Shown here piece by piece: positions 1,672-49,000 of a DNA stretch of 64,000 nt; position 1 is the stretch's first letter; every line of letters starts with the position of its first letter. Made by a program: the position numbers and the translations under genes. Below the pieces are notes generated by a model, which saw only the letters and a program-made list of their open reading frames with translations, was not told the DNA's origin and did no database searches. The stretch comes from Lytechinus pictus (Eukaryota), in the NCBI RefSeq assembly GCF_037042905.1, contig NC_087250.1, positions 5,582,001-5,646,000 on the forward strand, given 5' to 3'.

Positions 1672-4175
1672 TATATCGGACTATAATGTTTATCATGTTT
1701 ATAGGACTTTATAGTTTTTTTTTTTTTTTTTTTTTAACACCAACTACTTACGACATACTTTTCTTTCATAATTGGCAACGAAAGGCAAGTGGTATGATAT
1801 ATACATATATTGCAAAGCATGACTTGGAGAGCAGAAATTAATAACAGAACATACATTAGAGCGTGAACATCTCCGATGAAGAGATATAGATGATAAATTG
1901 GACAAGAAAAATAATTGTCTGTCTGTGAAAACAGTGGCGGCAAGGGGGCATTTATGCCCCCCTCCCCTGAAATTTGAAGAAAAAAATGTTTTGTAAATGC
2001 TGTCATGTCATAAGCATCCTATACTAAAGCCATGAAAGCTGTAAAACTATATAAACAAAAACCGTTTTCCACTATTCAGATAAAAAAAAAATTCTCATCA
2101 AAAAACAGAAAATAAATTATTCGAAGGTATTGAGTGCCTCAAACTACTTTATCGGGATTACGAGATTTTATATTATTTCATCTACATCATCTTTCACCTT
2201 GAAAAAATGGCAGCATTAGATAGTCTCGTAACAAGACACACACAACTATTTTCAAACAGAAATGAACTTCATTCCTCTCCTTACGAAAATAATTTGTCTT
2301 GTAATAACCGAAGAAAGAAAAAATATGAAAAAATACAGAAATCAAAGATGAATAAGGATTCATTGTAGATATAATAGGGTGATCCAGAACGAATGCTTCG
2401 CCCCGCCCCCCCCCCTCTACTTCCCCCCCCCCCCCCCCCCCGCCTCTCGCAGCGCCCCGAAAGAAATAAGAAAAAGAAAGAAAGCTTGCGTACTTTTTTA
2501 AATAAAAATTAGGATTTTTAATGATTCAACTTTGGAATCTGAAATAATGTGTTTACTTTAATAAAGAATTCGAAAGCTTTAGAATACGACAACTGGTCCA
2601 TGTGACAAGTAGAAGACGCAGTGTTTTACTGATAACTTGACATTTTGTTAAGTAAGCACTGTAATGAATCCTTGCCGTGATTAGCTGGAAGCAGGGTTCA
2701 AGTATAACAAAAATTATCTGATAGTTATCAGTCAGTAACAAATTGACCTTACAATATTTGAAATTAAGTTAATAGATAGTAGGGTCCAATGGGGCGCGAA
2801 AATAACCGAATTTTAATTATATTTTCCTGATATTTTAAACAATCACACTCAAACATCGTAATTGGCATTATTACTTTCTGATTAGATCTCGTAATCAAGC
2901 TTGTGTCTTGCAAATATGTGCGAAATTTGCAATTCATTGATTATCTGCTTCTTGACACAAGGAGTGTAATCTCATTTGCTGCAGTTGAAATCTATCAATT
3001 GTAAAATTATATCAGAATATTTGCAATTGGTATATAATCCAACAGCTACCAATGGCCCTTTTTAGGGCCACCAAAAAATCAAGAAAGAATACTGTCCTCT
3101 AGTATGGTAACAAATGACTACCACATAATAAGATAATTAATTAGAAATAAATCATTTGCAAATATGAACAAAAAACAAAGCAAATACATGTAGCCTAGTT
3201 TATTTCTATAATTGATTTATTACAAATCATATGCCCATATATACACTGGTACATACCCTTCTTGTTATACAATACAATTGTTAACAAAATCAAAATGGCC
3301 GCCAACCTGTCTATAGTGGCCACCTGTCTATAGTGGTCACTTTCTCTGCTTCCCTTGAGTGTCCACTATAGACAGATTTGACTCTTATTCTTTATTATAT
3401 ATCGGACTATAATGTTTATCAAGTTTATAGGACTTTATAGTTTTTTTTTTTTTAACACCAACTACTTACGACATACTTTTCTTTCATAATTGGCAACGAA
3501 AGGCAAGTGGTATGATATATACATATATTGCAAAGCATGACTTGGAGAGCAGAAATTAATAACAGAACATACATTAGAGCGTGAACATCTCCGATGAAGA
3601 GATAGAGATGATAAATTGGAGAAGAAAAATAATTGTCTGTCTGCGAAAACGTGGCGGCAAGGGGGCATTTATGCCCCCCTCCCCCGAAATTTGAAAAAAA
3701 ATGTTTTGTAAATGCTGTCATGTCATAAGCATCCTATACTAAAGCCATGGAAGCTGTAAAACTATATAAACAAAAACCGTTTTTCACTATTCAGATTTAA
3801 AAAAAAATTCTCATCAGAAAACAGAAAATAAATTATTCGAAGGTATTGAGTGCCACAAACTACTTTATCGGGATTACGAGATTTTATATTATTTCATCTA
3901 CATCATCTTTCATCTTTAAAAAATGGCAGCATTTGATTGGTCTCATAACAAGACACACACAACTATTTTCAAACAGAAATGAACTTCATTCCTCTCCTTA
4001 CAAAAATAATTTGTTTAGTAATTATAACCGAAAAAAGAAAAATATGAAAAATACAGAAATCAAAGATGAATAAGGATTCATTGTAGATTTAATAGGGTGA
4101 TCCAGAACGAATGCTTCGCCCCACCCCCCCCCCCTACTCGCGGCGCCCCCAAAGAAATAGGAAAAAGGAAGAAAA
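1672..4175 (+). repeat. Local direct duplication (~1672-2480 vs ~3398-4175)
   Basis: About 800 bp of near-identical text with scattered substitutions and homopolymer differences. Confidence 0.9.
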
Positions 4176-8310: not shown

Positions 8311-11300
8311 ATATAGTGACATGAAAGATTATTTTTATTTTCCAAGTCTTCCCCTCATCTTATTTTATCTACTCTGGAAAATTTGACAAGCAAAAAAAGA
8401 AAAAAAAGGTTTCACCCAAAATGTAAGGTCATTTAGTCCAAAATACATGTATTATTTCGAGTGTGAATGGTGTATTTTTTCTCAAAAAGACCAGAAATAG
8501 TAGAAGGACATTTGATATTGTTTCCCCCTACTATTTTTGGTAGGGGGACACGTCCCCCTATCCCCCTGGGATTTCCGCCCACGGTTATAATGACATATTA
8601 TGTTATGCAAGGTCCACTAGAAGAAACGGTCACAGCTGAGAGTGACTATCATGCGTAGATAAGAGCTATTTTATAGTGCTATTATAATCATTACTATCAT
8701 TTATATTAATATGAGAAGAAATACGACACAATATGGAATTTGCCAATCGTAATTTCCGTCCAGGAACTTTGGCCAAAATATCAAACAGGCGTTCTACATA
8801 TATACCAATAATATTGAGGGTAAAAAATAATTGCAAGAGACGTTTTATATATGCTTTTTACGATGTTACATACAATTCAATAACAAAGTAAGCCTGATAA
8901 AAACTTAGATTTTCAGACAGTGATTCAGATAATACAATACAGTAGTGCTTACCGACTGGAACTCTCCCTGAGATTCCTCCCTCGGGATCCAAGATTACAA
9001 CGCACATAATTAAGATGTTAACGTATGAACTAAACATTTTGAGCTGCTAAAGTATGATAAACTTAACGAATTTGAACTAATTCTCTCTTACGAACAAACT
9101 TCGCAGATCTAAAGATGCCGGCGAAGAAATATGAAATATTCGTTAATTGATTGTTCGAGTAGAAGTCAATTCCTTAAAAACGATCTATTTTTATATAACA
9201 CAAGTCATAATCTATATTTGTTAAATCATAAATGCTAATTTGTGTAATTATTAACGAAGAAAAAAGATAGATAATTCTTTCTATACTCTAAGGATTCTCA
9301 GGATGACTGCCAGCTTAAACAAGAAGGGGGCGTGGTCGAAAGCTTTAGAATACGACAGCTGGTCCATGTATTACAAGTAGAAGACGTGTTTTACTGATAA
9401 CTTGACATTTTGTTAAGTAAGCACTGTAATCAATGCTTGCCGTGATTAGCTGGAAGCAGGAATCAAGTATCACAAAAATTATCTGAGAGTTATCAGTCAG
9501 TGACAAATTGACCTTACAATATTTGAAATGAAGTTAATAGATTAGTTAATGGGGCGCGAAAATAACCGAATTGTAATTATATTTTTCTGATATCTTAAAC
9601 AATCACACTCAAACATCGTAATTGGCATTATTACTTTCCGATTAGATCTCGTTATCAACCATGTGTCTTGCAATTATGTGCGAAATTTGCAATTCATTGC
9701 TTATCTGCTTCTTGACACACGGAGTGTAATCTAATTGGCTGCAGTTGAAATCTATCAATTGTAAAATTATATCAGAATATTTGCAATTGGTTGCAAATAT
9801 TTTATTGCAACACCCCCCCCCCCCCATATGCATACATGTACAAAATAAAAGAGCGCATGTTACAGTGTTTAATATAGTGACATGAAAGATTATTTTTATT
9901 TTCCAAGTCTTCCCCTCATCTTATTTTATCTACTCTGGAAAATTTGACAAGCAAAAAAAGAAAAAAAAGGTTTCACCCAAAATGTAAGGTCATTTAGTCC
10001 AAAATACATGTATTATTTCGAGTGTGAATGGTGTATTTTTTCTCAAAAAGACCAGAAATAGTAGAAGGACATTTGATATTGTTTCCCCCTACTATTTTTG
10101 GTAGGGGGACACGTCCCCCTATCCCCCTGGGATTTCCGCCCACGGTTATAATGACATATTATGTTATGCAAGGTCCACTAGAAGAAACGGTCACAGCTGA
10201 GAGTGACTATCATGCATAGATAAGAGCTATTTTATAGTGCTATTATAATCATTACTATCATTTATATTAATATGAGAAGAAATACGACACAATATGGAAT
10301 TTGCCAATCGTAATTTCCGTCCAGGAACTTTGGCCAAAATATCAAACAGGCGTTCTACATATATACCAATAATATTGAGGGTAAAAAATAATTGCAAGAG
10401 ACGTTTTATATATGCTTTTTACGATGTTACATACAATTCAATAACAAAGTAAGCCTGATAAAAACTTAGATTTTCAGACAGTGATTCAGATAATACAATA
10501 CAGTAGTGCTTACCGACTGGAACTCTCCCTGAGATTCCTCCCTCGGGATCCAAGATTACAACGCACATAATTAAGATGTTAACGTATGAACTAAACATTT
10601 TGAGCTGCTAAAGTATGATAAACTTAACGAATTTGAACTAATTCTCTCTTACGAACAAACTTCGCAGATCTAAAGATGCCGGCGAAGAAATATGAAATAT
10701 TCGTTAATTGATTGTTCGAGTAGAAGTCAATTCCTTAAAAACGATCTATTTTTATATAACACAAGTCATAATCTATATTTGTTAAATCATAAATGCTAAT
10801 TTGTGTAATTATTAACGAAGAAAAAAGATAGATAATTCTTTCTATACTCTAAGGATTCTCAGGATGACTGCCAGCTTAAACAAGAAGGGGGCGTGGTCGA
10901 AAGCTTTAGAATACGACAGCTGGTCCATGTATTACAAGTAGAAGACGTGTTTTACTGATAACTTGACATTTTGTTAAGTAAGCACTGTAATCAATGCTTG
11001 CCGTGATTAGCTGGAAGCAGGAATCAAGTATCACAAAAATTATCTGAGAGTTATCAGTCAGTGACAAATTGACCTTACAATATTTGAAATGAAGTTAATA
11101 GATTAGTTAATGGGGCGCGAAAATAACCGAATTGTAATTATATTTTTCTGATATCTTAAACAATCACACTCAAACATCGTAATTGGCATTATTACTTTCC
11201 GATTAGATCTCGTTATCAACCATGTGTCTTGCAATTATGTGCGAAATTTGCAATTCATTGCTTATCTGCTTCTTGACACACGGAGTGTAATCTAATTGGC

Positions 11301-14300
11301 TGCAGTTGAAATCTATCAATTGTAAAATTATATCAGAATATTTGCAATTGGTTGCAAATATTTTATTGCAACACCCCCCCCCCCCCATATGCATACATGT
11401 ACAAAATAAAAGAGCGCATGTTACAGTGTTTAATATAGTGACATGAAAGATTATTTTTATTTTCCAAGTCTTCCCCTCATCTTATTTTATCTACTCTGGA
11501 AAATTTGACAAGCAAAAAAAGAAAAAAAAGGTTTCACCCAAAATGTAAGGTCATTTAGTCCAAAATACATGTATTATTTCGAGTGTGAATGGTGTATTTT
11601 TTCTCAAAAAGACCAGAAATAGTAGAAGGACATTTGATATTGTTTCCCCCTACTATTTTTGGTAGGGGGACACGTCCCCCTATCCCCCTGGGATTTCCGC
11701 CCACGGTTATAATGACATATTATGTTATGCAAGGTCCACTAGAAGAAACGGTCACAGCTGAGAGTGACTATCATGCATAGATAAGAGCTATTTTATAGTG
11801 CTATTATAATCATTACTATCATTTATATTAATATGAGAAGAAATACGACACAATATGGAATTTGCCAATCGTAATTTCCGTCCAGGAACTTTGGCCAAAA
11901 TATCAAACAGGCGTTCTACATATATACCAATAATATTGAGGGTAAAAAATAATTGCAAGAGACGTTTTATATATGCTTTTTACGATGTTACATACAATTC
12001 AATAACAAAGTAAGCCTGATAAAAACTTAGATTTTCAGACAGTGATTCAGATAATACAATACAGTAGTGCTTACCGACTGGAACTCTCCCTGAGATTCCT
12101 CCCTCGGGATCCAAGATTACAACGCACATAATTAAGATGTTAACGTATGAACTAAACATTTTGAGCTGCTAAAGTATGATAAACTTAACGAATTTGAACT
12201 AATTCTCTCTTACGAACAAACTTCGCAGATCTAAAGATGCCGGCGAAGAAATATGAAATATTCGTTAATTGATTGTTCGAGTAGAAGTCAATTCCTTAAA
12301 AACGATCTATTTTTATATAACACAAGTCATAATCTATATTTGTTAAATCATAAATGCTAATTTGTGTAATTATTAACGAAGAAAAAAGATAGATAATTCT
12401 TTCTATACTCTAAGGATTCTCAGGATGACTGCCAGCTTAAACAAGAAGGGGGCGTGGTCGAAAGCTTTAGAATACGACAGCTGGTCCATGTATTACAAGT
12501 AGAAGACGTGTTTTACTGATAACTTGACATTTTGTTAAGTAAGCACTGTAATCAATGCTTGCCGTGATTAGCTGGAAGCAGGAATCAAGTATCACAAAAA
12601 TTATCTGAGAGTTATCAGTCAGTGACAAATTGACCTTACAATATTTGAAATGAAGTTAATAGATTAGTTAATGGGGCGCGAAAATAACCGAATTGTAATT
12701 ATATTTTTCTGATATCTTAAACAATCACACTCAAACATCGTAATTGGCATTATTACTTTCCGATTAGATCTCGTTATCAACCATGTGTCTTGCAATTATG
12801 TGCGAAATTTGCAATTCATTGCTTATCTGCTTCTTGACACACGGAGTGTAATCTAATTGGCTGCAGTTGAAATCTATCAATTGTAAAATTATATCAGAAT
12901 ATTTGCAATTGGTTGCAAATATTTTATTGCAACACCCCCCCCCCCCCCCCATATGCATACATGTACAAAATAAAAGAGCGCATGTTACAGTGTTTAATAT
13001 AGTGACATGAAAGATTATTTTTATTTTCCAAGTCTTCCCCTCATCTTATTTTATCTACTCTGGAAAATTTGACAAGCAAAAAAAGAAAAAAAAGGTTTCA
13101 CCCAAAATGTAAGGTCATTTAGTCCAAAATACATGTATTATTTCGAGTGTGAATGGTGTATTTTTTCTCAAAAAGACCAGAAATAGTAGAAGGACATTTG
13201 ATATTGTTTCCCCCTACTATTTTTGGTAGGGGGACACGTCCCCCTATCCCCCTGGGATTTCCGCCCACGGTTATAATGACATATTATGTTATGCAAGGTC
13301 CACTAGAAGAAACGGTCACAGCTGAGAGTGACTATCATGCATAGATAAGAGCTATTTTATAGTGCTATTATAATCATTACTATCATTTATATTAATATGA
13401 GAAGAAATACGACACAATATGGAATTTGCCAATCGTAATTTCCGTCCAGGAACTTTGGCCAAAATATCAAACAGGCGTTCTACATATATACCAATAATAT
13501 TGAGGGTAAAAAATAATTGCAAGAGACGTTTTATATATGCTTTTTACGATGTTACATACAATTCAATAACAAAGTAAGCCTGATAAAAACTTAGATTTTC
13601 AGACAGTGATTCAGATAATACAATACAGTAGTGCTTACCGACTGGAACTCTCCCTGAGATTCCTCCCTCGGGATCCAAGATTACAACGCACATAATTAAG
13701 ATGTTAACGTATGAACTAAACATTTTGAGCTGCTAAAGTATGATAAACTTAACGAATTTGAACTAATTCTCTCTTACGAACAAACTTCGCAGATCTAAAG
13801 ATGCCGGCGAAGAAATATGAAATATTCGTTAATTGATTGTTCGAGTAGAAGTCAATTCCTTAAAAACGATCTATTTTTATAGAACACAAGTCATAATCTA
13901 TATTTGTTAAATCATAAATGCTAATTTGTGTAATTATTAACGAAGAAAAAAGATAGATAATTCTTTCTATACTCTAAGGATTCTCAGGATGACTGCCAGC
14001 TTAAACAAGAAGGGGGCGTGGTCGAAAGCTTTAGAATACGACAGCTGGTCCATGTATTACAAGTAGAAGACGTGTTTTACTGATAACTTGACATTTTGTT
14101 AAGTAAGCACTGTAATCAATGCTTGCCGTGATTAGCTGGAAGCAGGAATCAAGTATCACAAAAATTATCTGAGAGTTATCAGTCAGTGACAAATTGACCT
14201 TACAATATTTGAAATGAAGTTAATAGATTAGTTAATGGGGCGCGAAAATAACCGAATTGTAATTATATTTTTCTGATATCTTAAACAATCACACTCAAAC

Positions 14301-14560
14301 ATCGTAATTGGCATTATTACTTTCCGATTAGATCTCGTTATCAACCATGTGTCTTGCAATTATGTGCGAAATTTGCAATTCATTGCTTATCTGCTTCTTG
14401 ACACACGGAGTGTAATCTAATTGGCTGCAGTTGAAATCTATCAATTGTAAAATTATATCAGAATATTTGCAATTGGTTGCAAATATTTTATTGCAACACC
14501 CCCCCCCCCCCCCCATATGCATACATGTACAAAATAAAAGAGCGCATGTTACAGTGTTTA
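8311..14560 (+). repeat. Tandem array of 4 near-identical 1561-1564 bp units
   Basis: Units start at 8311, 9872, 11433 and 12997. Differences I noticed: poly-C length (13,13,16,16), one G/A near 8656 and one T/G near 13882. Confidence 0.97.
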
Positions 14561-17500
14561 ATATAATTTTTTTTACATATCGTCAGTGATTTTACGCACC
14601 AGCTCAAAACTAATTTTTGGTCAAATTTTTTAAATGTATTTTTTTTTCAAATTCTGAAGGCCCGTGATTCACTCTATTAATTTGCCAAATTTCAGATTAA
14701 AATTTGTATCATTTAAAAGATAAGAGCATAATTTCTTATGAACCAGCTCAACCCCTTCTTAAATATTACGAACTGGCTCAAACCATTTTTTGTGTAGTAC
14801 ACTCTTAAACATAAGCACAGTGTGAAACATCGTGCTGTCACGCAGTAAAGACAATGCGATTATACTATGATAATACTTATGCAAAATAGGTCATCACGCT
14901 GAAATCAAACTGTGTTGAACAAATGCCAGACAGTCATTGGCGCATTATCCGTGACGTCATACTATTAAAGTGGGGGGTTGAAACAATTGATCATCCCCCC
15001 CCCCCCCCCCCCCCCCTGAACAGTAGATTCAAAGCTTGGATTACGCCAGTGCAGACAAAGGCTATCTTCTTCACAGTGTAGTCACTGTGAACTATATGAA
15101 TACACTGTGCTAAACGAATGTGAGCGTGTGAATCTTTCTTTCACGGTGTTGGCACTGTATGTGTAGAATTATATTAGCACACTGGCATGCTTCTGTAGTC
15201 ATATCAGGTTTAACTTAGACCACGGTCAAATTCTGTGCTAAAATTAAAGGGAGCCAGAAACAAAAAAAAATTGGTTGCATTGTATATATATATTTTATTT
15301 TTTAGTATTTTTTCCCTTTGCTTTTATAATGAAGAAAAATACCTCAGTTATCAATGATTTTAGTATCATGTGAGATGATTAATTAAACATTAATTTAACA
15401 TGTACTAACTGAGAGATTTGTGCCCCAATTGGCTATCCATAGTTAAACCACATTTTTAAACCAGGGTTTAATTTGAACCTGAGTTCAGAATACTGGCCAC
15501 TGTCTTTCATGAATACTATAAAGTGGCCACTTCTTTACGGTGTGGTCAATGTGTGCAACTAAAATATGAACGCACTGTCGGATGAATGCCACACAGTATG
15601 AATCTTCTCCATTACAGAATGGGATGCGCCTTTACTGTGTATGCACTGTGCGAACACACTTTTACATAATTTCACAGAGTTATACGTTTCTTACTATGTG
15701 AACAGAGTGTGTTGTAGTTATCAGACATGGGCGGAAAGGGGTCCCCCCCCCCCTACTCAAAATAGTAGAGGGACTCAGTATCAAATATCCCCCCTACTAT
15801 TTTATACATCATTCAAAATCGAAATAAAACGTGAATTTTAGGACGAGATGACCTTACTTTTGGGATGATAACCTTGTTGGTTTTTTTTTTTTTTGCTTGT
15901 CAACTTTATTTTCGTCCAATTGACCTTAAATTTGGGTGATAACCTTTTTTTTTGCTTGTCAAATTTTCCAGCCCCTTGTCCCCCTTACCTTTTGGGAGAG
16001 ATTTCCGCCCCTGCAGACATTAGCATTATAATAAAAATACAGGTGCTTTCTACGTGTAAATGCAATTCAAATCACAATGGACATCTAAGAGGTTTTTGTC
16101 GAAAGTTAGTGGAGCGGGACAGCAGATCGTCCGAAGATTCGGACCGAACGAAAAATTGCAGATTTTTTCGTTTGTCCAGAGTCCACCTGTCCAGGACGAC
16201 ACTTCTGTTTTAATTCAAATATTTTCGACAAAGGCCCTTATATCATTTAATGGCTTTTTACAAATGACTCTCTGCGTTATAGAAAACGTCCGCGTGGTAT
16301 TTGCGAACGTGCCCTAGTGAGAAATCGAGAATGCACAGTAAGAATGTGTTTTTCCTGTGGGCCAACTATGTATCTTATTTGACACACACTTTACACACTA
16401 TATTCACACTGTGTTCACACAGTAGTCTGTGTGTTGACTGTGTACTTACTGTGTTGACTCTTCGCAAGGGCAGAAAGCATGAGGACAGAATATATATGTA
16501 TATGGAGCTAAGTCGGTACAACATCGTCTATGACATTCAATTCAATTAAACATCGTTTTATTATCTCTTATAATGCATATTCTTCATCCCAATACATAAG
16601 TATCTTATTATACAAGCTTGTGCAAAATGTCGAGTTTCCAATACCCATTAGGAAAGCATTATATGTTATAATTTAAGATGTGCATACTCTTTGTTTTATA
16701 CCTGAAACCATATAGCATAAAAATTGGCTTAAAGTGTATTTGTTTAAAACAAATAATGTTATCATTTTCGACATAAAACTAATTGATAAGTACGAAACTT
16801 TGAACATGTTTGCGTGTGAAGTAGATGGTTTTAACAATTATTTCATTACCAAGAGTAAACATTTATGAACTTAGTTTATCTGTGACGATGCTTGACGATC
16901 AATCATTGACCCGGTCGGGGCCGACAATGATGAAGCATCTATTTATAATCGTTTTGTCAGCTATATATATTTAAGATAACAAATACATGTTAAAAAAAAC
17001 TTCTGCATATTTCTTTAAGGCAATAATCAAATTGGATAAAACAACAAATTCAACAGCGTTGTGCTAAGTCGTCAGAGAACAATAATATTCGACAAGTAAT
17101 GTATCATAAGGGATACAATATCTATGGATTTAGAATCATTTAAACCATAACATATTTTTCTCATTACGGATAAGTAAATAATTTTATCATGTAAGGCAAA
17201 ATTCGCGTAAGCATGGTAAGGGGATAATAGGGTTTACGTCAGTGATAAAATTGACCTAGAGATCAGGTATGAAAATATAGCGTTAGTTGGTACAAATTAG
17301 GCTACTGACACATATGATCGAAATCTTATCCCCAACTTCAGACACTAATGCAAAACCAGTTTTTAGCTTGTATTGGTACAAAGCTTTCAGATGCATTTCT
17401 TCATTAAGATTTTCCGCTTGTAAATACCCTATTTCTCTTAGATATATCTAACAAGTGGCGTAACGAGCCAAATCTTTTGAGGGGCAAGATAATGCGTATC

Positions 17501-18721
17501 GGGTGAGATTGATAAAAAGCTTCGTGCGAGCGAGCAAATATTTTGATAATTTTATTACAAAAATCTAATTTTGTGATAGATTTTGACTGAATATTTAGAA
17601 AATCATATATTTCACCTTCTCTCTTTCCTTTTCTCTTTTTTCAAAAGCCCAAGCTCCCCCTTCCCCATCCTCACCTGTACATTCCAGATACTAAATTTTT
17701 GGAAGTTAGAGATGTGATCATTATAACCCTCAAAATGCTATCATTGACTCTCTTCCAGAATTGTTGACACTATCAGGGGTTCTTTTAGGTTTTCCCGTCC
17801 AATTTAATGTATGCGTCACTTAAATTTATTAATGTACATTTAAATTCACGCGTTATCGTTTTAAAATGTTAAAATCAGACAATGGGCTTCATTTGAAGAA
17901 ACAAGAATTCATTTATGATCATTTCAATAAATATATGGTCAAGACTACATGTATCTCAAATTTGATCATTTCACCATTTGTCACGTGCTTTTGTTATCTT
18001 GACACATTGTATTTTTTTTCAGTTTAATTTCTTTTTCTTTACACATTATTTTCTTAGTATTCGTTCCTTTGATCGTGAAATGGTTAATGGTTAAGCAAAA
18101 TTTCATCATATTCCAAAAAATGAAATGCAGAAATGTGTCAAGAAATGTAATTTTAGCGAATTTGGCATCAAGCTCATTCAACCGTGAAATTCAGTGCAAA
18201 AGATCTTCTGTATGACAGAAACATAGCATGTGCTTGTAACCAAAATTTTGGCTTTAAACTATGAACATGCCCCTTCTCAGCGATTGGAACCAAACGATAT
18301 ACACTAAAGTCCAGCAGAGCTGTGATTCATATAATATACAGTTAAGAAATCTTACTGCTTTGGGGGCCTGAGCAAGTTAACTGAGCGATAGTGCTCCTTG
18401 GTAAGGCAATTGGACTAATTACCAGTGGCGGCCGCACAGAAGCGTTAATCCCGACCTTTCGCTGGAGAACGCGAACGCTTATTTACGACGGTAGTTGATT
18501 ATGGAAGAGACTTTTGGGCCCGTCGTCATGGTCGTAAAACTCTATCCTGCAATGCAAATTGTGTGACATGAGATTTTTTTTTCATTTCGCATCTGCAACG
18601 GATACATTCAATATGCGTTTCGTGTGCAAAATTCTGGATGCTACTATGGTAACATCGATATATCCGATTTAGGACGACTTTCCAGGGCCACATTTGGTTC
18701 CTCCCAGAGCTCGAGAGGCCG

Positions 18722-19019
18722 CCCGGGGGCCCACTTCCATTGACGAGTGGATACCAGGCGCGACCACGCGTTAAAGGGACAGAGTGGGCAAGTACGTTAC
18801 GTATAGGCCTATGTTACGTTAAAAGGGTGTTAAAAACGATGTTTAAAATACTGAAAAAGGGATATATTTCCGATACTTGAAGGGTTTTCCCAAGCCAAAT
18901 ACTTGTTAAGAGATGCATTTTCATAATCTGGAAAAGACTTGATTCCCTTGTTTAGGGTGCTTTTCTTAACCCCATGGTCGTGCCTGGTATCCTCTCATCA
19001 ATGGAAGTGGTCCCCCGGG
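18722..19019. mobile_element. Internally deleted CCCGGG-terminal TIR element
   Basis: cccgggggcccacttccattgacgagtggatacca ... tggtatcctctcatcaatggaagtggtcccccggg; same family as 57092-57612. Confidence 0.75.
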
Positions 19020-19785
19020 ATTTTAATCTAATCCCCCATTTCTGGGGAAAGTAAAACATAATGCCCGTTACATGTGCTAGAGGCATATCGTTTGTGTAGA
19101 AGGAGTAAACAAAAGAAAAAACCCGCAAATTCGGCTGGTGTTCAGACGTTTAGGCCTATTGCATATGTTGTGTACATATCAACGCATGCGAAATGGTTTC
19201 GGCTGGAGAGGTGATCTGACCCATGGAATCAATTGTCAGTGATCCACCAATAATCCACATTAAATGCAATATCGATTCGATGGACTGTAAAGATCTATAT
19301 CTAAACCTTAACTCTTTAAGAGCCATTGAGAGCTATAGTTGCCCATAGCCCTCTAGTGCCGTTGACAGCTAAAGTTGCCCAAGTAACTTTTTTTGTTTAA
19401 CCCATTTTACAGCCAGAAAATCAACACCATATTCTGTGTTTTCTATGTTGTTATATTGGCAAGGAATTCACAATTCATTTTGTCATATAAGAAATAGTGG
19501 TTTACATTTTTTGAGTAAAATTGCATTTTTGCATCATTATTTTGAAGAGTTGATTTCGGATATTGCCGCGATCTGAATCAAGATTTCCTCTATAGACACG
19601 TGTGATATAAAGGTTGTGTGTAGCAATACACGTACTTCTATGGGCAGAGCAAAGGCGAGTGTGCGAAGGCATTCAGCTCGGAATTGACCAATTACAGAGC
19701 GGTACGATGTCTCTCACCCAACGCTACTTGCCCATTTGCTATTGTTTTATGAATATTCATGAGCTATCGATCGGGTCTTTTGCTG

Positions 19786-19962
19786 TGTGTGTGTGTGTGT
19801 ATTTGAGTTTTGTCAGACGTGTATCAATCAGAAATGATTATTTACGTCTGGGACCGACCTTTAACGTCACCATCCGAAAGACGTGACCAGGGCTCGAACC
19901 TCTGCATCAATTTGTAACTTCCCCACATAGCTTGGATTACAGGCGCACGCCACAACGCCCAG
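19786..19962 (-). mobile_element. SINE-like element with 7SL/Alu-domain-like head, B box, stem-loop body and (CA)n tail
   Basis: Minus strand reads CTGGGCGTTGTGGCGTGCGCCTGTAATCCAAGCTA..., GGTTCGAGCCC (19890-19900), GTCTTTCGGATGGTGACGTTAAA, (CA)n. Direct repeat TTGCTG at 19780-19785 and 19963-19968. Confidence 0.75.
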
Positions 19963-20174
19963 TTGCTGGCCGGTATGGTAGTATTCTTGTGTCAAGGCTT
20001 TCTTCTGCCTGCAAATGTGCACGGTCTGGGGGGATTTTTTTTTTTTTTTGGGGGGGGGAAAGGTCTTATACTTTGTTTTTAGCATTCTCACAAAATTGTT
20101 CTCGTTATAAATATATGAGTAAAGAAGTCTGTCATTTCCAACTCTCATCCGCGCACTGCAATCATCACACTCAT

Positions 20175-31800: not shown

Positions 31801-34800
31801 ATATATTTCACACTATATATGCGTCTAGATCCCAGAAAGTAACCTTTGACCAGATGACTCAAAAAACCTCATCACGCCATTATCATTCCAATATGGAAGA
31901 GCCATTAATTTTCATAAAGCTTATTCCTCAAAACTGCAAAAATTGTTGATTTTCGCGAGAATACCCCCTTGACATTGACTTGACCATTGTACTCGCTACC
32001 AAACCGGCTTTAGAAATTCCAATTAAAGTAGAATGCTGATATAGGCATCAATAAAAGTGTTGCATTATTTGATGTAAGGCTCAAGTCACAACTCAGAGCG
32101 GCGATCGATCGATTAGTAGCCTGGTCGGGCGCCGCTGGAATTTAGGCATCGCCGAACTATTTTTGTAGAAGTCGAGCGGGCTGCAAAAATAATTAGCGGT
32201 GGCCGAGCAGTGCCCGGTCGATTACCCATTACTCAAGGCCGAATCTAGGTCAAATTGGGGAACTTATCTGTTTGGCGTCTGAGCAGTGATCGACTGACAA
32301 CCCACCGAATCCCGGGCGGTCCCCCACCGGCCACCGGCCTATTTTTAGGTAATTGCCCGCCGGTCCGATCTTGAATTCGCCGCGAGATCATCGACCGATC
32401 TCTGACCGGCCAGGTCGGCCGATGACCGCTCGACAGCTGTCGATCCAACGAGTTTCGTTCGACGGCGACCGCTCGATTACGTCGGCTGCCGGAAGCGAAA
32501 GTATTTTTCCCATCGCAGTTCTGATCTGGAACATAATAGGAATATTCATGACTTGCGTCTTCGGAATAAAAGTACGCATGCGCGTGGATTAATTGTCGGT
32601 GCCTCGATCAGTGGTCGTTAGCGTTCACGTTTTCACGAATGAACATGATGAATCAGCACCCTCAAATTACCGATGCCCATACATAGTTATATAGGCCTTA
32701 TAGGCTTAGATCTATATCTAGATCCAGTTCTTAAACAATTATCAAACTAGCTGTCATTAATCATGTTAATGACAAGACAAAATGATAGGTTAGGGCTAGC
32801 TTAGGCTAGCCCATTAACTTTACCTCAAATCTGGACCTGTCTAATGCCTATTACTAGTAGCCAACCAATGCCATGGTTAACTTCGAACTGATTAATTCCG
32901 AACTTTACGTTTAATTAGGTTAGACCAATTAGCTTAGTAGCCATGGTTTAATAAGTCTAGTCTTTATATACAGAACCAGTCCTAGATCTAAATAAATTTA
33001 TCTTAGATCTAGTCTAGTCTCTAGATCTTGATAAACTCTGATCTAAGCTGTATCAGCATGGAACGTATTCTGACGTCAGGCACAAATTAACGTCAATGAG
33101 CAGGACATAGCCTACATTAACGGTTTAACGCACGCGGCTCTGCAATCGCAGAGTAAACTCTCTTGATCCCCGTCTTGATCAACAATAGATCGATCTGCAT
33201 TTTCTTTTCCAGTTATTAAGCTCTAATTGATTTCCCGTGCTCCAAATCGGGAATTGTGTTACTAGTTCTATACCCGGACGAGACCTATTTAACCAAGGCG
33301 ACCATAGCCTCTTGTCGAGGCCCTGTCGGCTGCTTTCCGAGCGAACATGGCAAAGCAAGGGAGAGAGCGAAGCAGAGCGCCGCGAGACAGGGCCTCTTGA
33401 CATCTGTGCCGAATTCCATCGACTTTCTTTTGTTTTTTGTTGTTTTTACCAATTCACCGACCAAAAACTGGTCGGTGAAAATCATCCAATGAGAGCGCGA
33501 GCTGCTATGACGTCATATTAAATATTCATGAGCTCATCTTGAATGGCTACCCTTGGATTCTTGGCGAAGAGTGACGACGAAATATCAAAGAGCACTGTAT
33601 ATGCCTCTAAAATGCTGAATATTGACCGATATAAGGATTTGCAATTCGATGAAATTAACTCTGCACTGAAAGGACGAGATATCTTTGTAAATCTACCCAC
33701 AGGATATGGAAAAAATGTAATATTTAATGCGATTCCACCGGTCGATCCGGGGCGTCGATTATCGATTAAGTGCAGTGCAGTGAGGGAAGCTGGGGTGGAG
33801 TTGCTGGGAGTTGACTCGAGTCTGACCAGCGGCTGAGAAGTATCTCCCGGGAAGTTTCGGGGCGGTGATGGGTCTGTTACGGCCAGTAGTAATAGTAGTA
33901 GTAGTAGTAGTAGTAATAGTACCACTACTTTTAGCATTTTGCTGGTTATATCCCCTTTAGTGTCCCGCAATTAAATGAATCCCCTGCAGAATAGTGGACT
34001 ACTATATAGTATTCCGAACCCAAGACGAAACAGCTCTGACATTTCATTGGTTTACTCGGTGACCGGTAATATCATGACTCATGTATATTCATTAGGAAGA
34101 CGTTCCTCATGAATATATAATTCAGTTCAGATGTCAAGAGGCCCTGGCTCGCGCCAGGGCCTCTTGACATCTGAACTGAATTATATTTGATGCGTGTTTA
34201 AGCATTGGATCTAGATATAGATCTTACCCAGGTAACAATACAGCGTTGGACCAACGTTGGATCAACGTTGGGAAATTTTTTCCCAACGTTGCCTCAACGT
34301 TGGCAGGCCAACGTTGCATCATCGATAGAAGTGCACGCGCATACATCGTCAGACCAACAACATTTCCAACGTCAGTTCAACGTTGTCCAGCAACAATGTT
34401 TCAACGTTGTCTGGCAACGTTGATCCAATGTTGGCTAAATAGTCAAATACAACATTGCTACAACGTTGGTAAGCAACGTTGCATCATCGATAGAAGTGCA
34501 CGTCCATACATCGTCAGACCAACAACATTTCTAACGTCAGTTCAACGTTGTCCACCATCAATGCTCCAACGTTGGTATAATGTCGGCTGAGTCATCAATA
34601 ACAGCATTGCTGCAACGTTGATGGGCAACGTTGAAGCAGCGATGGACGTGAACTTGCATACATCGTCAGTCCAACTATGTTTACAACGCTGGTTCAACGC
34701 TGTCCAGCAACAATGCTCCAACGTTGTCTGGCAACATTGCTCCAACATTGTTACAACGTTGTCACAACGTTGCTCCAACATTGCTCCAACGTTATTCCAA

Positions 34801-43800: not shown

Positions 43801-45923
43801 TTTAGTATGTTATTCTAGACATATTTATGGACCTATCTGATTATGTTTACTCTAACCTGTATCAATAGCTCCTTGTACACCTTTAAACCATGAAATATGC
43901 ACCAAAATTAGATGTCTAGGGTGGACGATGAGTGGGTTATGTCCATTTTCTGTGAATGGCAGCCATTTTGGACGCCATCTTGGATTACGGAAAACCCTCA
44001 AGGAGGATATATGAGGACTTTAAGGACGTTCCACAGTTACGTGTGTGCGCATTATGATCTGCGCATAGTTTACACTCTGCGCGCTGACGTCACAATGGAT
44101 AAACAGGTAATTAATTAGCTGCGGGTATGAGCTGATTTTTCTCATCTTCTGCACTTTAACTGCAGATACGATGCGTTATCTCATGAAGCTAAAAAATTGA
44201 TTTATTCCATGGACCATTCAATAAAATATCCTCTACAATTTCAAAATACTTTACTCTGCAGTGCTGCCAAGAATCACGAACATTACCCCGAGTTTGAATA
44301 AATGGTAGAGTGGTTTTGATTTTTTCTTCACATAGATACTAAGCATTCGGCGCATTTTTGGTGTTTTAAAAAGCACATTTGCTGTAATACAAATGCTGAT
44401 AGTTTAAAAACAAGCACATGAACCCCTATTTTTTAATGTTTGTACCTCTTAGGTATACCTTCCTCTACAACTCTGCAAATTTTTGTGAAAATGACATGGA
44501 TTTTGAATAAAGTGCAGCATTTATTGTACGTTTATAGTTTGTTACTAAAATTTTAAATTTTTTAAATTGGGATTTTGTTATCTTTTACGCCATTTTTAAG
44601 AACTGACAGTGCTGTTAAACTTAAAATTGCAAACAAATAGCACTATAAATAGATTCTCCATTCTAACGATACAATTATTAACTCTATTGCGAAATTTGAT
44701 GACTTTTTCATGTATTTTGACGGAGTAATAGAGGTTTAAACTCATTGTAGTAATCTTGGGCGGTCTAAAAATGCCAAATTCTTTTGAATGCGCATTTCTT
44801 AAGAACATCAATTTGAGTGAACTTTGAAGCTCTATAGCAAAAGATCAAGCACATGGACCTATGTTAATTTTTGCATATTTCGAATATTAAGGTTCTAAAG
44901 TATCTATGTGCAAAGTTTGGTGAAAATGACATGGATTTCACTTTAACTGTGGAACGTCCTTAAGTATGTTATTCTAGACATATTTATGGACCTATCCTGA
45001 ACAAATCAGCTTGTTACCAAAAATTTCCATGTTAAACCTAATGCTCTTAATTGGCCTAAGAGAAGGAACTGGAAAAGGGGTTTTGTGTGGGCGCGTGCAT
45101 CGAAAGTGCATGCGTGCAGTTTGTAATGAACTTAGTTCTACTGGGGACATTTTTCAAAAATATATTTTACCAATCAACTTGGGACGTCCCCGGTCCAGAA
45201 TTCCCGACCTTTCGTTGGAGAACGCGAACGCTTATTTGCGACGACAGTTGATTTTGGAAGAGACTTTTGGGCCCGTCGTCATGGTCGTGTGCAAAATTCT
45301 GGTTGCTACTATGGTAACAGCGATATATCCGATTTAGGACGACTTTCCAAAGCCACATTGTGTTCCTCCCAGAGCTCGAGAGGCCGCCCGGGGGCCCACT
45401 TCCATTGAAGAGTGGATACCAGGCGCGACCACGCGTAAAAAGGGAAAGATTGGGCAAGTACATTACGTATAGGCCTATGTTAAGATATGCATTTTCATAA
45501 TCTGGAAAAGCCTTGCTTCCCTTGTTTAGGGTGCTTTTCGAAACCGCATAATACCCATTACATTGTGTGCTAGAGGCATATCGTTTGTGTAGGAGTAAAC
45601 AAAAGAAAAATAGATCATAACAGTCCATCGAATCGATATTGCATTTAATGTGGATTATTGGTGGATCACTGGCAATTGATTCCATGGGTCAGATCGCCTC
45701 CCCAGCTGAAACCATTTCGCATGTGTTGATATGTACACAGCATATGCCATACGTTTGAACTTGCATGTTTCTTTTGTTTACTCCTTCTACACAAACGATA
45801 TATACTTCCATTGATCAGTGGATACCAGGCACAACCATGGGGTTTCGAAAATTATCTAACAAGGGAAGCAAGTCCTTTCCAGATTATGAAAATGCATCTC
45901 TTAACAAGTATTTGGCTTGTAAA

Positions 45924-46001
<78 letters not shown>

Positions 46002-49000
46002 TTTCAGTATTTTAAACATCGTTTTTGACACCCTTATAACGTTACATAGGCCTGTACTTGCCCACTCTGTCCCCTTTTACGCGTGATCGCGCCTGGTATC
46101 CACTCATCAATGGAAGTGGGCACCCCGGGCGGCCTCTCGAGCTCTAGGAGGAACCAAATCTGGCTTTGAAAAGTCGTCCTAAATCGGATATATCGCTGTT
46201 ACCATGCATAGAAGCAACCATAATTTTGCACACGAAACGCAAATTGAATGTTTCTGTTCCAGATGCGAAACGTAAAAAAAATCTCATGTCACACAATTTG
46301 CATTGCAGGACAGAGTTTTACGACCATGACGACGGGTTCTTCTAACGAAAGGTCGGGATTGTCAGTGCAGCTGCTCTACATGAATTGGCTTTGATATCAT
46401 GAACAAAATAGACCCAAAAAAGGAAGAAAGAAGGGCGTACTCACACAGATGGGCGTACTCGACAGTCGATCCTGCCCCCGCCTCTCTTTTAGTTTCAATA
46501 ATACTCTAGAGAAACTATCAGCATTCGGCATTTGCACACCCTTGACCCGAGAATTGCGTCCGAGGCCGAGGATTAACCTCCATCCTCGGGGACAATGCCG
46601 ATTATGCGGCCTCAAGGCCGAAGCCGGCCTCGAGACTCACAACACTGGTGTAGGCGGTAGAAAGCGTCCCCGGTAAGGGACTTTATGTCAGAAAATGAGC
46701 TACTTAGTGGTTAAAATTCAAACAAATAGACTGCACACGCACACACTATAGTCCCCACTTTGTCGATTAATGATAAACGAGTCCCGACTGTGCGTGTGTG
46801 GGGGGAGGGCATGGGCGGAAATCCCAGGGGGGACAGGGGGACGCGTCCCTCCCTACCCAAAATAGTAGGGGGACATAATATCAAATGTCCGCCCTACTAT
46901 TTTTTGTATTTTATGATGGAGCAAAATACATCACTTTACAATCGAAATAATACATGTATTTTGGACTAAATGACCTTACATTTTCGGGGAGAACTTTTTT
47001 TTTTTGCTTGTCAAATTGTTTTGATAAAAATTACCTTACATTTTGGGTGAAAACCTTTTTTTTATTTTTGCTTGTCAAATTTTCCAGGCCCGGTCCCCCT
47101 ACCTTTGGGGACAGATTTCCGACCATGGGAGAGGGTGTACACATACGTTTATGTAAATGGGTATGTGTATGAATACAACAAATAAATTACCTCTTCTTTG
47201 TATAGGCCTACGACCAACTCCATCTCCAGATTCTAAACAGAAGGAAGAGGACAACAAAGTTTAACACATTATCTACATGATCTACATTATGTATAATTTT
47301 GAATGTAAAAAACAAAACGCTTAAATCGTCATCAAAATTACACAACTCCAAAAAGAAATAGATTTTTATTGAAACAAATAGGTCCATGATTTAAACCGGG
47401 GGTTGAAATAACTATTACGACAAAATGCAAAACAAATAGGGAATGTGTGACATCGCTCGCTCTCATCTTTATGTTACCATGCAGCGTGATGACTATCTGT
47501 GCGAAACAATTAACATGTCGTTTTCATCAGGGGTCCGTTGCAGAAAGAGTTGTCTTTAAACGCAAGTCAAAAAATCAACTGCAAGTCCAAAATGCACGCT
47601 GTTGATTGGTTGAAAATCAAGTTGTGCATGATTTTTAGAGTTGCGATTGATTGCAACTATTTCTGCAACGGGCCCCAGTCTGAATTCGATGACGATGAAA
47701 TTTCCATCGGCTTCTTTGAACATCGCTATTAATTCAAATCTACTCTTCACTGGGATGTGTTGAACTTTAAGCTATGCTGTATACAAAATTAGTTGTAGTT
47801 TGTGCGTACGTGTATGTGTGTGAGTGTGAAATATGCAACAAATAAATTAGTTAGTCTTTGTTTCCGTCTAAGCATGTTTTCAGTTTCTAAGCAATTCATT
47901 TGATCACGCCGCTCCCACCCCCCCCCCTGAAAAAATATCAAATTGAATATAAATAAGTTTAAAAGATTAGAAGATAAACATTACTATTATGATAAATGAA
48001 TAGATAGATAAATAAACAATGAGTTATTCATTATGAGAAAAATATATAAATGAATTAAATAACAAAATATCTACATAATCTACTTTTGTGTATAATTTAC
48101 TTATGCGCAATTACCAAATGCGACCAGACAATATTGGGTTATAATATACAATGCACACTTTATTTTACAAACATCAAAGATGCTTACGAAAATAATTATC
48201 TGACTATTTTCACATACCATACATAAATTAGGATTAACCGGAGTGCAGAATGCTTGAGTATTACGATGTTAATATGTCTACTGACCTTTTGCAATGGTAG
48301 AAGTTTCTTGGACACTGAAAGACAGAGTCGTCTTAGATTCAGTTGCATCTTCAGGCGGTGAAATGTCGGGAAAAGAATATGTTGTGTCTTCTTTGATAAC
48401 TGGTCGCGTAACTGGTTCTGGTGACTTGAACTTTGCTGCTAAAGCACAGGGTTTTCCTGCATTGGATGAAATGCACATAGAAACACACGAACAAAACTGA
48501 TAACAGATTCATTAGGTACGTCCTCCCCCCCCCCCCTCCTTCTTTTGTTTTCTTTTGAGGACTCAACTGATGCAAACTTTCGACCCGCAATGCCGTGCCT
48601 ATTCGGATTTCCTTGAGGGTGTACCTCAAGGCGCCGTCAGCGCACCCTTCCTCTTCCTGGTATAGGCCACACTTTCAAAGAAATGCACATTCCAAATAAA
48701 TGTAGCATAATTCCAAGTAATTCACACGTCCAATCTATAATAATATCTATGGTAATGAAAATGATATTTCGCTGAGATATCATGACTTGTTTGTCCCCCA
48801 TTTCAACATTATTTTGATATGCCGAATCTGTTAAGCATAAACAGACTTTCAAGTGATAAGGACATGCGTCTACACGACGCCTGGCTAGCTCATAGTTGAC
48901 AAAAGATGTGGGAGGTATTTAATTATTACAGAATAATCCTTAGGTGGGTTCCCTGTTATTCTTTTTACCTGAAAAAATACAAATGGAGCATAAAATGACC

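Follow-up and report, generated by a model that had tools for sequence, protein, structure and literature searches.

The window analysed here, a stretch of 64,000 nucleotides from the sea urchin Lytechinus pictus with a G+C content of approximately 35%, contains a genuine retroposon of approximately 178 nucleotides on the minus strand (19963–19786), lying inside a 6-bp direct repeat. An earlier note on this DNA had suspected an invertebrate-type host, correctly, as the host is a sea urchin and the window holds a sea-urchin gene. This gene, composed of multiple exons on the minus strand (57923–28407), encodes a protein with NACHT and protein-kinase parts (P0001, 1,097 amino acids, ‘uncharacterized’) with relatives in both L. 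variegatus and S. purpuratus. Over 97% of its length, the long NACHT exon shows 100% identity to a protein of Lytechinus pictus, as against 92% to one from L. variegatus, which points to L. pictus or a very close relative as the host. The retroposon lies 8.4 kb past the final mapped exon of this gene.

A dispersed repeat (18449–19298), situated just left of the retroposon, is 75–94% similar to 45202–46336 and 57105–57250. Further to the left, four tandem units of approximately 1.56 kb each (8311–14565) are 99.7–99.9% identical, and part of this unit matches 2570–3031 at 93%; the array is either a recent duplication or an assembly artefact. Long, near-perfect inverted repeats at 34115–34186 and 1154–1372, which matched plant miRNA-like hairpins below the gathering score, are probably transposon-derived. 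Rfam also detects a histone 3′ stem-loop on the plus strand (3049–3095; 36.9 against a gathering score of 34), with no histone reading frame evident among the open reading frames of at least 110 amino acids.

From its 5′ to its 3′ end, the retroposon consists of a 7SL 5′ Alu domain, a B box, a Deu fragment, a stem-loop tail and a (CA)n stretch, placed between the two copies of the direct repeat:

19963–19968, minus strand: 5′ copy of the 6-bp target-site duplication, whose last base is also the first one of the head
19917–19963, minus strand: 5′ Alu domain of 7SL (SRP RNA), 47 nt, from the alignment to Rfam RF00017, with the closing stem, two hairpins and the conserved motif between the hairpins
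approximately 19959–19950, minus strand: A-box equivalent within the 7SL-like head
19901–19916, minus strand: linker, either the 5′ strand of a tRNA variable/T-arm or a continuation of 7SL
19880–19900, minus strand: candidate 3′ end of a tRNA-like head, comprising the B box (19900–19890) and an acceptor-like strand (19886–19880)
19846–19883, minus strand: 5′ fragment of the Deu domain, approximately 35 nt, placed by visual comparison with the supplementary Deu alignment of PMC7245038 (excerpt)
19814–19850, minus strand: 3′ tail stem-loop, present in both the MFE and the centroid fold
19786–19813, minus strand: A-rich spacer and (CA)n tail; the related metagenome loci L028 and L037, described below, end alike
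19780–19785, minus strand: 3′ copy of the 6-bp target-site duplication, beginning with the last CA unit

Both the (CA)n tail and the 6-bp duplication had been noticed earlier and were recovered, the former as (CA)8 at 19799–19784 on the minus strand and the latter with its copies at 19968–19963 and 19785–19780. In a control in which a 6-mer common to two junctions 183 nt apart was sought with a slack of ±2, 117 of 8,946 control sites in the window (1.3%) had such a repeat by chance; as the duplication extends into the element on either side, the support that it lends to target-primed insertion is modest. Of the features by which SINEBase defines a SINE (PMC3531059), the element shows a length below 1 kb (178 nt), RNA polymerase III promoter boxes, a body and a simple-repeat tail of (CA)n; it also has a target-site duplication, 6 bp long and overlapping both ends.

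The 7SL-like head

The earlier note had likened the head to the 5′ end of human 7SL and had named the Rfam model Metazoa_SRP as a means of checking the likeness. This model is the best Rfam match of the head, extending from 19963 to 19877 with a score of 29.5 bits and an E value of 1.3e-5 in a 1-kb search, or 8.1e-4 when the whole window is searched against all Rfam families. This falls far short of the gathering score, 70, as would be expected of a fragment. Aligned by eye, the head is identical to the Rfam consensus at 30 of the 35 model positions 1–35, with one inserted base, and the likeness stands; the 28 of 35 given previously referred to human 7SL.

Of the 14 model pairs in the 47-nt head, 12 are canonical; another is non-canonical, as it is in the consensus, and the remaining one is broken. 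In the closing stem, two of three pairs differ from the Rfam consensus on both sides and still pair, a compensatory change, and the loop bases and the motif between the hairpins equal the consensus. Presumably, this motif and these loop bases serve SRP9/14 binding and loop–loop pairing. The A box of the head differs from that of human 7SL at 2 of 10 positions.

Past position 47, the SRP alignment degrades, with 5 of 13 pairs non-standard and low posterior values, and a 3′ Alu domain is therefore not convincingly present. As judged from the alignment, the 7SL share of the element is limited to its 5′ approximately 47 nt. The earlier description of the element as ‘Alu-like’ and 7SL-derived thus applies to these nucleotides, but the 3′ 7SL part that Alu, B1, Urop and the hagfish SINE1 retain is not convincingly there.

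The 5′ part, which in a SINE1 is 7SL-derived, has Metazoa_SRP as its best match here and keeps the pairing; its 7SL-like length of approximately 47 nt falls short of the SINEBase threshold, which is at least 60% identity to tRNA, 5S or 7SL RNA over at least 60 nt. A tRNA-derived 5′ part, the mark of a SINE2, was not found, the first 47 nt being SRP-like and yielding no tRNA call: ARAGORN detected no tRNA gene in the window, and Rfam gave no tRNA match to the head at E ≤ 10. An Rfam match to mir-1268 over the head (E = 0.0056) was set aside as weaker than that to Metazoa_SRP on the same stretch; this miRNA derives from Alu.

Body, tail and relatives with tRNA-like heads

Metagenome contigs were scanned with a pattern combining the B box and Deu. 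The scan returned 45 loci, of which 43 were unrelated and were dropped, and two (L028 and L037) were kept. SINEs that carry the same body and tail under tRNA-like heads do exist: body and tail of the urchin element are 92% identical to L028 over 111 nt and 83% identical to L037 over 116 nt. After the acceptor strand, 76 of 80 positions are identical to L028, a count that includes 9 positions fixed by the search pattern. The heads of the two loci differ from that of the window element and look tRNA-derived, and in L037 a perfect A-box motif precedes the B box by 32 nt and the 7-nt ends are complementary. Rfam lists no tRNA for either head at E ≤ 5, so that the term ‘tRNA-like’ rests on the box motifs and the acceptor complementarity.

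The SINE at L028:351–511 and L037:290–490, tRNA-headed and with a very short Deu fragment, a stem-loop tail and a (CA)n end, was matched to no family described in the literature examined. Scans with body and tail patterns gave 0, 0 and 1 matches in viral sequences and 0 and 0 in prokaryote genomes, urchin DNA being expected in neither collection. The single viral locus (L046) was rejected as a chance match with no SINE context around it.

The Deu-domain core proposed in the earlier note was recovered in part. The Deu-like stretch equals AmnSINE1_HS in 21 of 24 columns, compared by eye in the Deu alignment (PMC7245038, supplement, excerpt), but the domain is present for approximately its first 35 nt only and the rest is absent. 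By comparison, the Deu domain spans 70–330 bp in described DeuSINEs (PMC4824008, excerpt). Stretches similar to the fragment occur in bivalve and snail SINEs. No sea-urchin consensus turned up in those published supplements that were searched with the motif.

The tail stem-loop (19850–19814) is predicted in the window element, in L028 and in L037, and its outer seven pairs are invariant in L028 and L037. As the pairs of the tail hardly vary, they carry no covariation signal. Folding of the body is no better than that of shuffled sequences (z = −0.30 for the whole body of the window element, with further values of −0.47 and −1.42). The stem-loop is presumed to act as a recognition signal for a LINE reverse transcriptase.

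The B box (GGTTCGAGCCC), also reported in the earlier note, is present at 19900–19890 on the minus strand, but it appears most likely, from its sequence surroundings, to stem from a tRNA-type SINE rather than from 7SL. The A box of the 7SL head lies 49 nt before it. No T4 stop is found inside the element, the first one occurring at 19520, beyond the 3′ end. A tRNA origin of the B box is favoured by the spacing of 11 nt between the B-box core and the start of Deu, equal to that in L028 and L037, and by the strand at 19886–19880, which is an exact complement (7 of 7) of the first seven nucleotides of the tRNA-like head of L037; in L037, this complementary 5′ strand lies 52 nt before the B box. 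On the other side, the linker (19901–19915) is no closer to L028 and L037 than are shuffled sequences, 1036 and 1255 of 3000 of which reach its score. Between the B-box core and the start of Deu, only 6 of 11 free positions match L028 and L037, far below the agreement in the body. A 36-nt segment beats its shuffles in comparison with the metagenome loci (2 and 0 of 3000 reach its score), with a significance that is inflated because the loci were chosen by a pattern inside this segment. Owing to the 6-of-11 match and the linker at shuffle level, the junction between head and body is bracketed between 19917 and 19900 rather than pinned to one position.

Possible origins of the chimera

We consider it quite likely that the element is one full-length member of a sea-urchin SINE family that arose when its head was replaced. 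Most likely, template switching put the 5′ domain of 7SL in place of the front part of a tRNA-type SINE, whose B box was retained; a replacement is suggested because the body and tail also exist under a tRNA-like head, in L028 and L037. The chimeric 7SL-headed SINE envisaged by the earlier note is borne out as a chimera, by the SRP match and by the body and tail shared with these two loci, but the contribution of 7SL is narrower than had been thought.

In the proposed mechanism, the reverse transcriptase of a LINE would have been at work on a tRNA-type Deu SINE and, immediately upstream of the B-box arm, would have changed to 7SL RNA as its template. The resulting chimera would possess a hybrid RNA polymerase III promoter, with the A box of 7SL and the B box of a tRNA 49 nt apart, and given this promoter and the lack of an internal T4 the element could be retranscribed. 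Its 47-nt head is predicted to fold, bind SRP9/14 and carry the RNA to ribosomes, where the account would continue with the tail stem-loop recruiting the partner LINE enzyme for target-primed insertion and, in time, with the multiplication of the chimera into a family. Related events have been described: the hagfish SINE1-1_EBu arose when 7SL and an older tRNA SINE formed a chimera (Kojima 2020, PMC7245038, excerpt), and heads made of 5S and partial tRNA are ascribed to template switching (PMC4824008, excerpt). Cut down to 46 nt, a 5′ Alu domain still binds SRP9/14 and drives a single round of retrotransposition but has no B box, and this minimal domain is necessary for Alu retrotransposition (PMC11760393, excerpt).

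It is unlikely that the whole head, through the B box, came from 7SL by internal deletion in the manner of an Alu monomer, with the Deu fragment and tail supplied by a tRNA SINE. Published 7SL SINEs all arose by central deletion (PMC13023118, excerpt), the linker is not significantly like tRNA-type heads, and cmscan matches 19894–19877 to the 3′ terminus of the SRP model. That 3′ alignment, however, is the one with non-standard pairs and low posterior values noted above, and the distance from B box to Deu agrees with L028 and L037, as does the acceptor-like strand with the 5′ strand of L037 that it complements. An origin as a one-off chimeric retrocopy, in which a single template switch between 7SL and a SINE, as in U6/L1 chimeras, gave a product that never amplified, seems quite improbable. 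Such chimeras are a known class (PMC11760393 and PMC7245038, excerpts), the 64-kb window contains one copy of the element, and none of the 45 metagenome loci is 7SL-headed, although the search pattern would fit a 7SL-headed form. Yet both promoter boxes are present, and the 7SL piece stops where the 5′ domain closes. Family status is proposed because the promoter parts are intact, the direct repeat is there and the odds of a chance unique chimera are low: in 64 kb taken at random from a large genome, we would expect to meet a unique chimera far less readily than a member of a family.

The likeness to 7SL is very improbably a product of chance, the remnant of a decayed tRNA head or a sign that the stretch is human Alu contamination. 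The match is short and lies under the Rfam gathering score, but its E value is still 8e-4 for the whole window and all families, there are compensatory pairs, no tRNA matches, and the SINE body that follows the head is not human and stands in a window that carries an urchin gene. The replacement of a tRNA-like head by the 5′ domain of 7SL in a SINE family is the reading that we prefer.

Relation to known SINEs

The hagfish element SINE1-1_EBu (Eptatretus burgeri) resembles the urchin element in having a 7SL head on an older tRNA-derived SINE and a tail that is not of L1 style and ends in a microsatellite, and in being independent of Alu (PMC7245038, excerpt). It keeps 96 nt of 5′ 7SL together with the 3′ part, that is, the whole Alu domain with its own B box, whereas the urchin element has 47 nt only; it has an RTE-derived tail and target-site duplications of approximately 17 bp, in place of a Deu fragment, a 6-bp repeat and a B box that is apparently of tRNA origin (PMC7245038, excerpt). 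Alu, B1, Tu and the shrew-mole Urop likewise carry a 5′ Alu domain with an A box but, unlike the urchin element, show a central deletion of approximately 183 nt, retain both 7SL ends and are mobilized by L1 with poly(A) (PMC13023118, excerpt). The published trait of SINE1, in which both 7SL ends flank a central deletion and the full Alu domain is kept, is not seen in the urchin element. A possible precedent for a hybrid head, mentioned in PMC13023118 (excerpt), is a left unit from the tree shrew that has a dual 7SL/tRNA origin.

The 5S-headed DeuSINEs (AmnSINE1 and SINE3) are similarly assembled from a foreign RNA polymerase III 5′ piece, a partial tRNA and Deu; their donor is 5S rRNA, whereas that of the urchin element is 7SL, with only approximately 35 nt of Deu (PMC4824008 and PMC3747384, excerpts). 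In the same host group, the sea-urchin SINE2 families comprise SURF1/SINE2-4c_SP, SINE2-3_SP (with Deu), SINE2-1/-2_SP (with Meta) and SINE2-6/-8_SP (PMC3747384 and PMC4824008, excerpts). SINE2-3_SP shares the Deu domain with the urchin element, but all of these families are tRNA-headed according to their descriptions, which sets them apart from the 7SL-headed element (same excerpts). The synthetic SA46/AY46 constructs of Moldovan et al. match it in having a 46–47-nt 5′ domain without a 3′ domain; SA46 has no B box and depends on an external promoter, in contrast to the urchin element with its downstream B box (PMC11760393, excerpt).

The element is best filed as one that would work like a SINE1 but stands outside the Alu/B1 and hagfish lineages; it is kept apart from these because it lacks the trait of both 7SL ends and does not reach the 60-nt overlap of SINEBase. 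It is probably a new variant of 7SL-derived SINE. On balance, we lean towards regarding it as a 7SL-derived SINE family that would be the first in an invertebrate and also the first in nature to be built on only the minimal 5′ Alu domain of 46–47 nt, self-renewing by means of a tRNA B box. The hosts of 7SL SINEs are given as supraprimates, hagfish and shrew moles only, with both ends of the Alu domain kept in all (PMC13023118, 2026, excerpt), and an account from 2024 names only supraprimates and hagfish (PMC10886601). The excerpts of PMC4758252, PMC5786205, PMC8615465 and PMC11481361 hold nothing on an urchin 7SL-headed family, and an invertebrate 7SL-derived SINE is absent from the literature searched, the scope of which excluded most subscription papers and Repbase Reports.

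A 7SL SINE in an echinoderm would represent a further independent origin of such elements, and the first outside vertebrates in the literature examined. If this is true, ribosome docking based on SRP9/14 would have been reinvented outside vertebrates, together with a non-L1 LINE partner that reads a stem-loop. The urchin element would then put to a natural test what was found in cell culture, namely that 46 nt are enough and that the 3′ domain is required solely because it supplies a B box (PMC11760393, excerpt).
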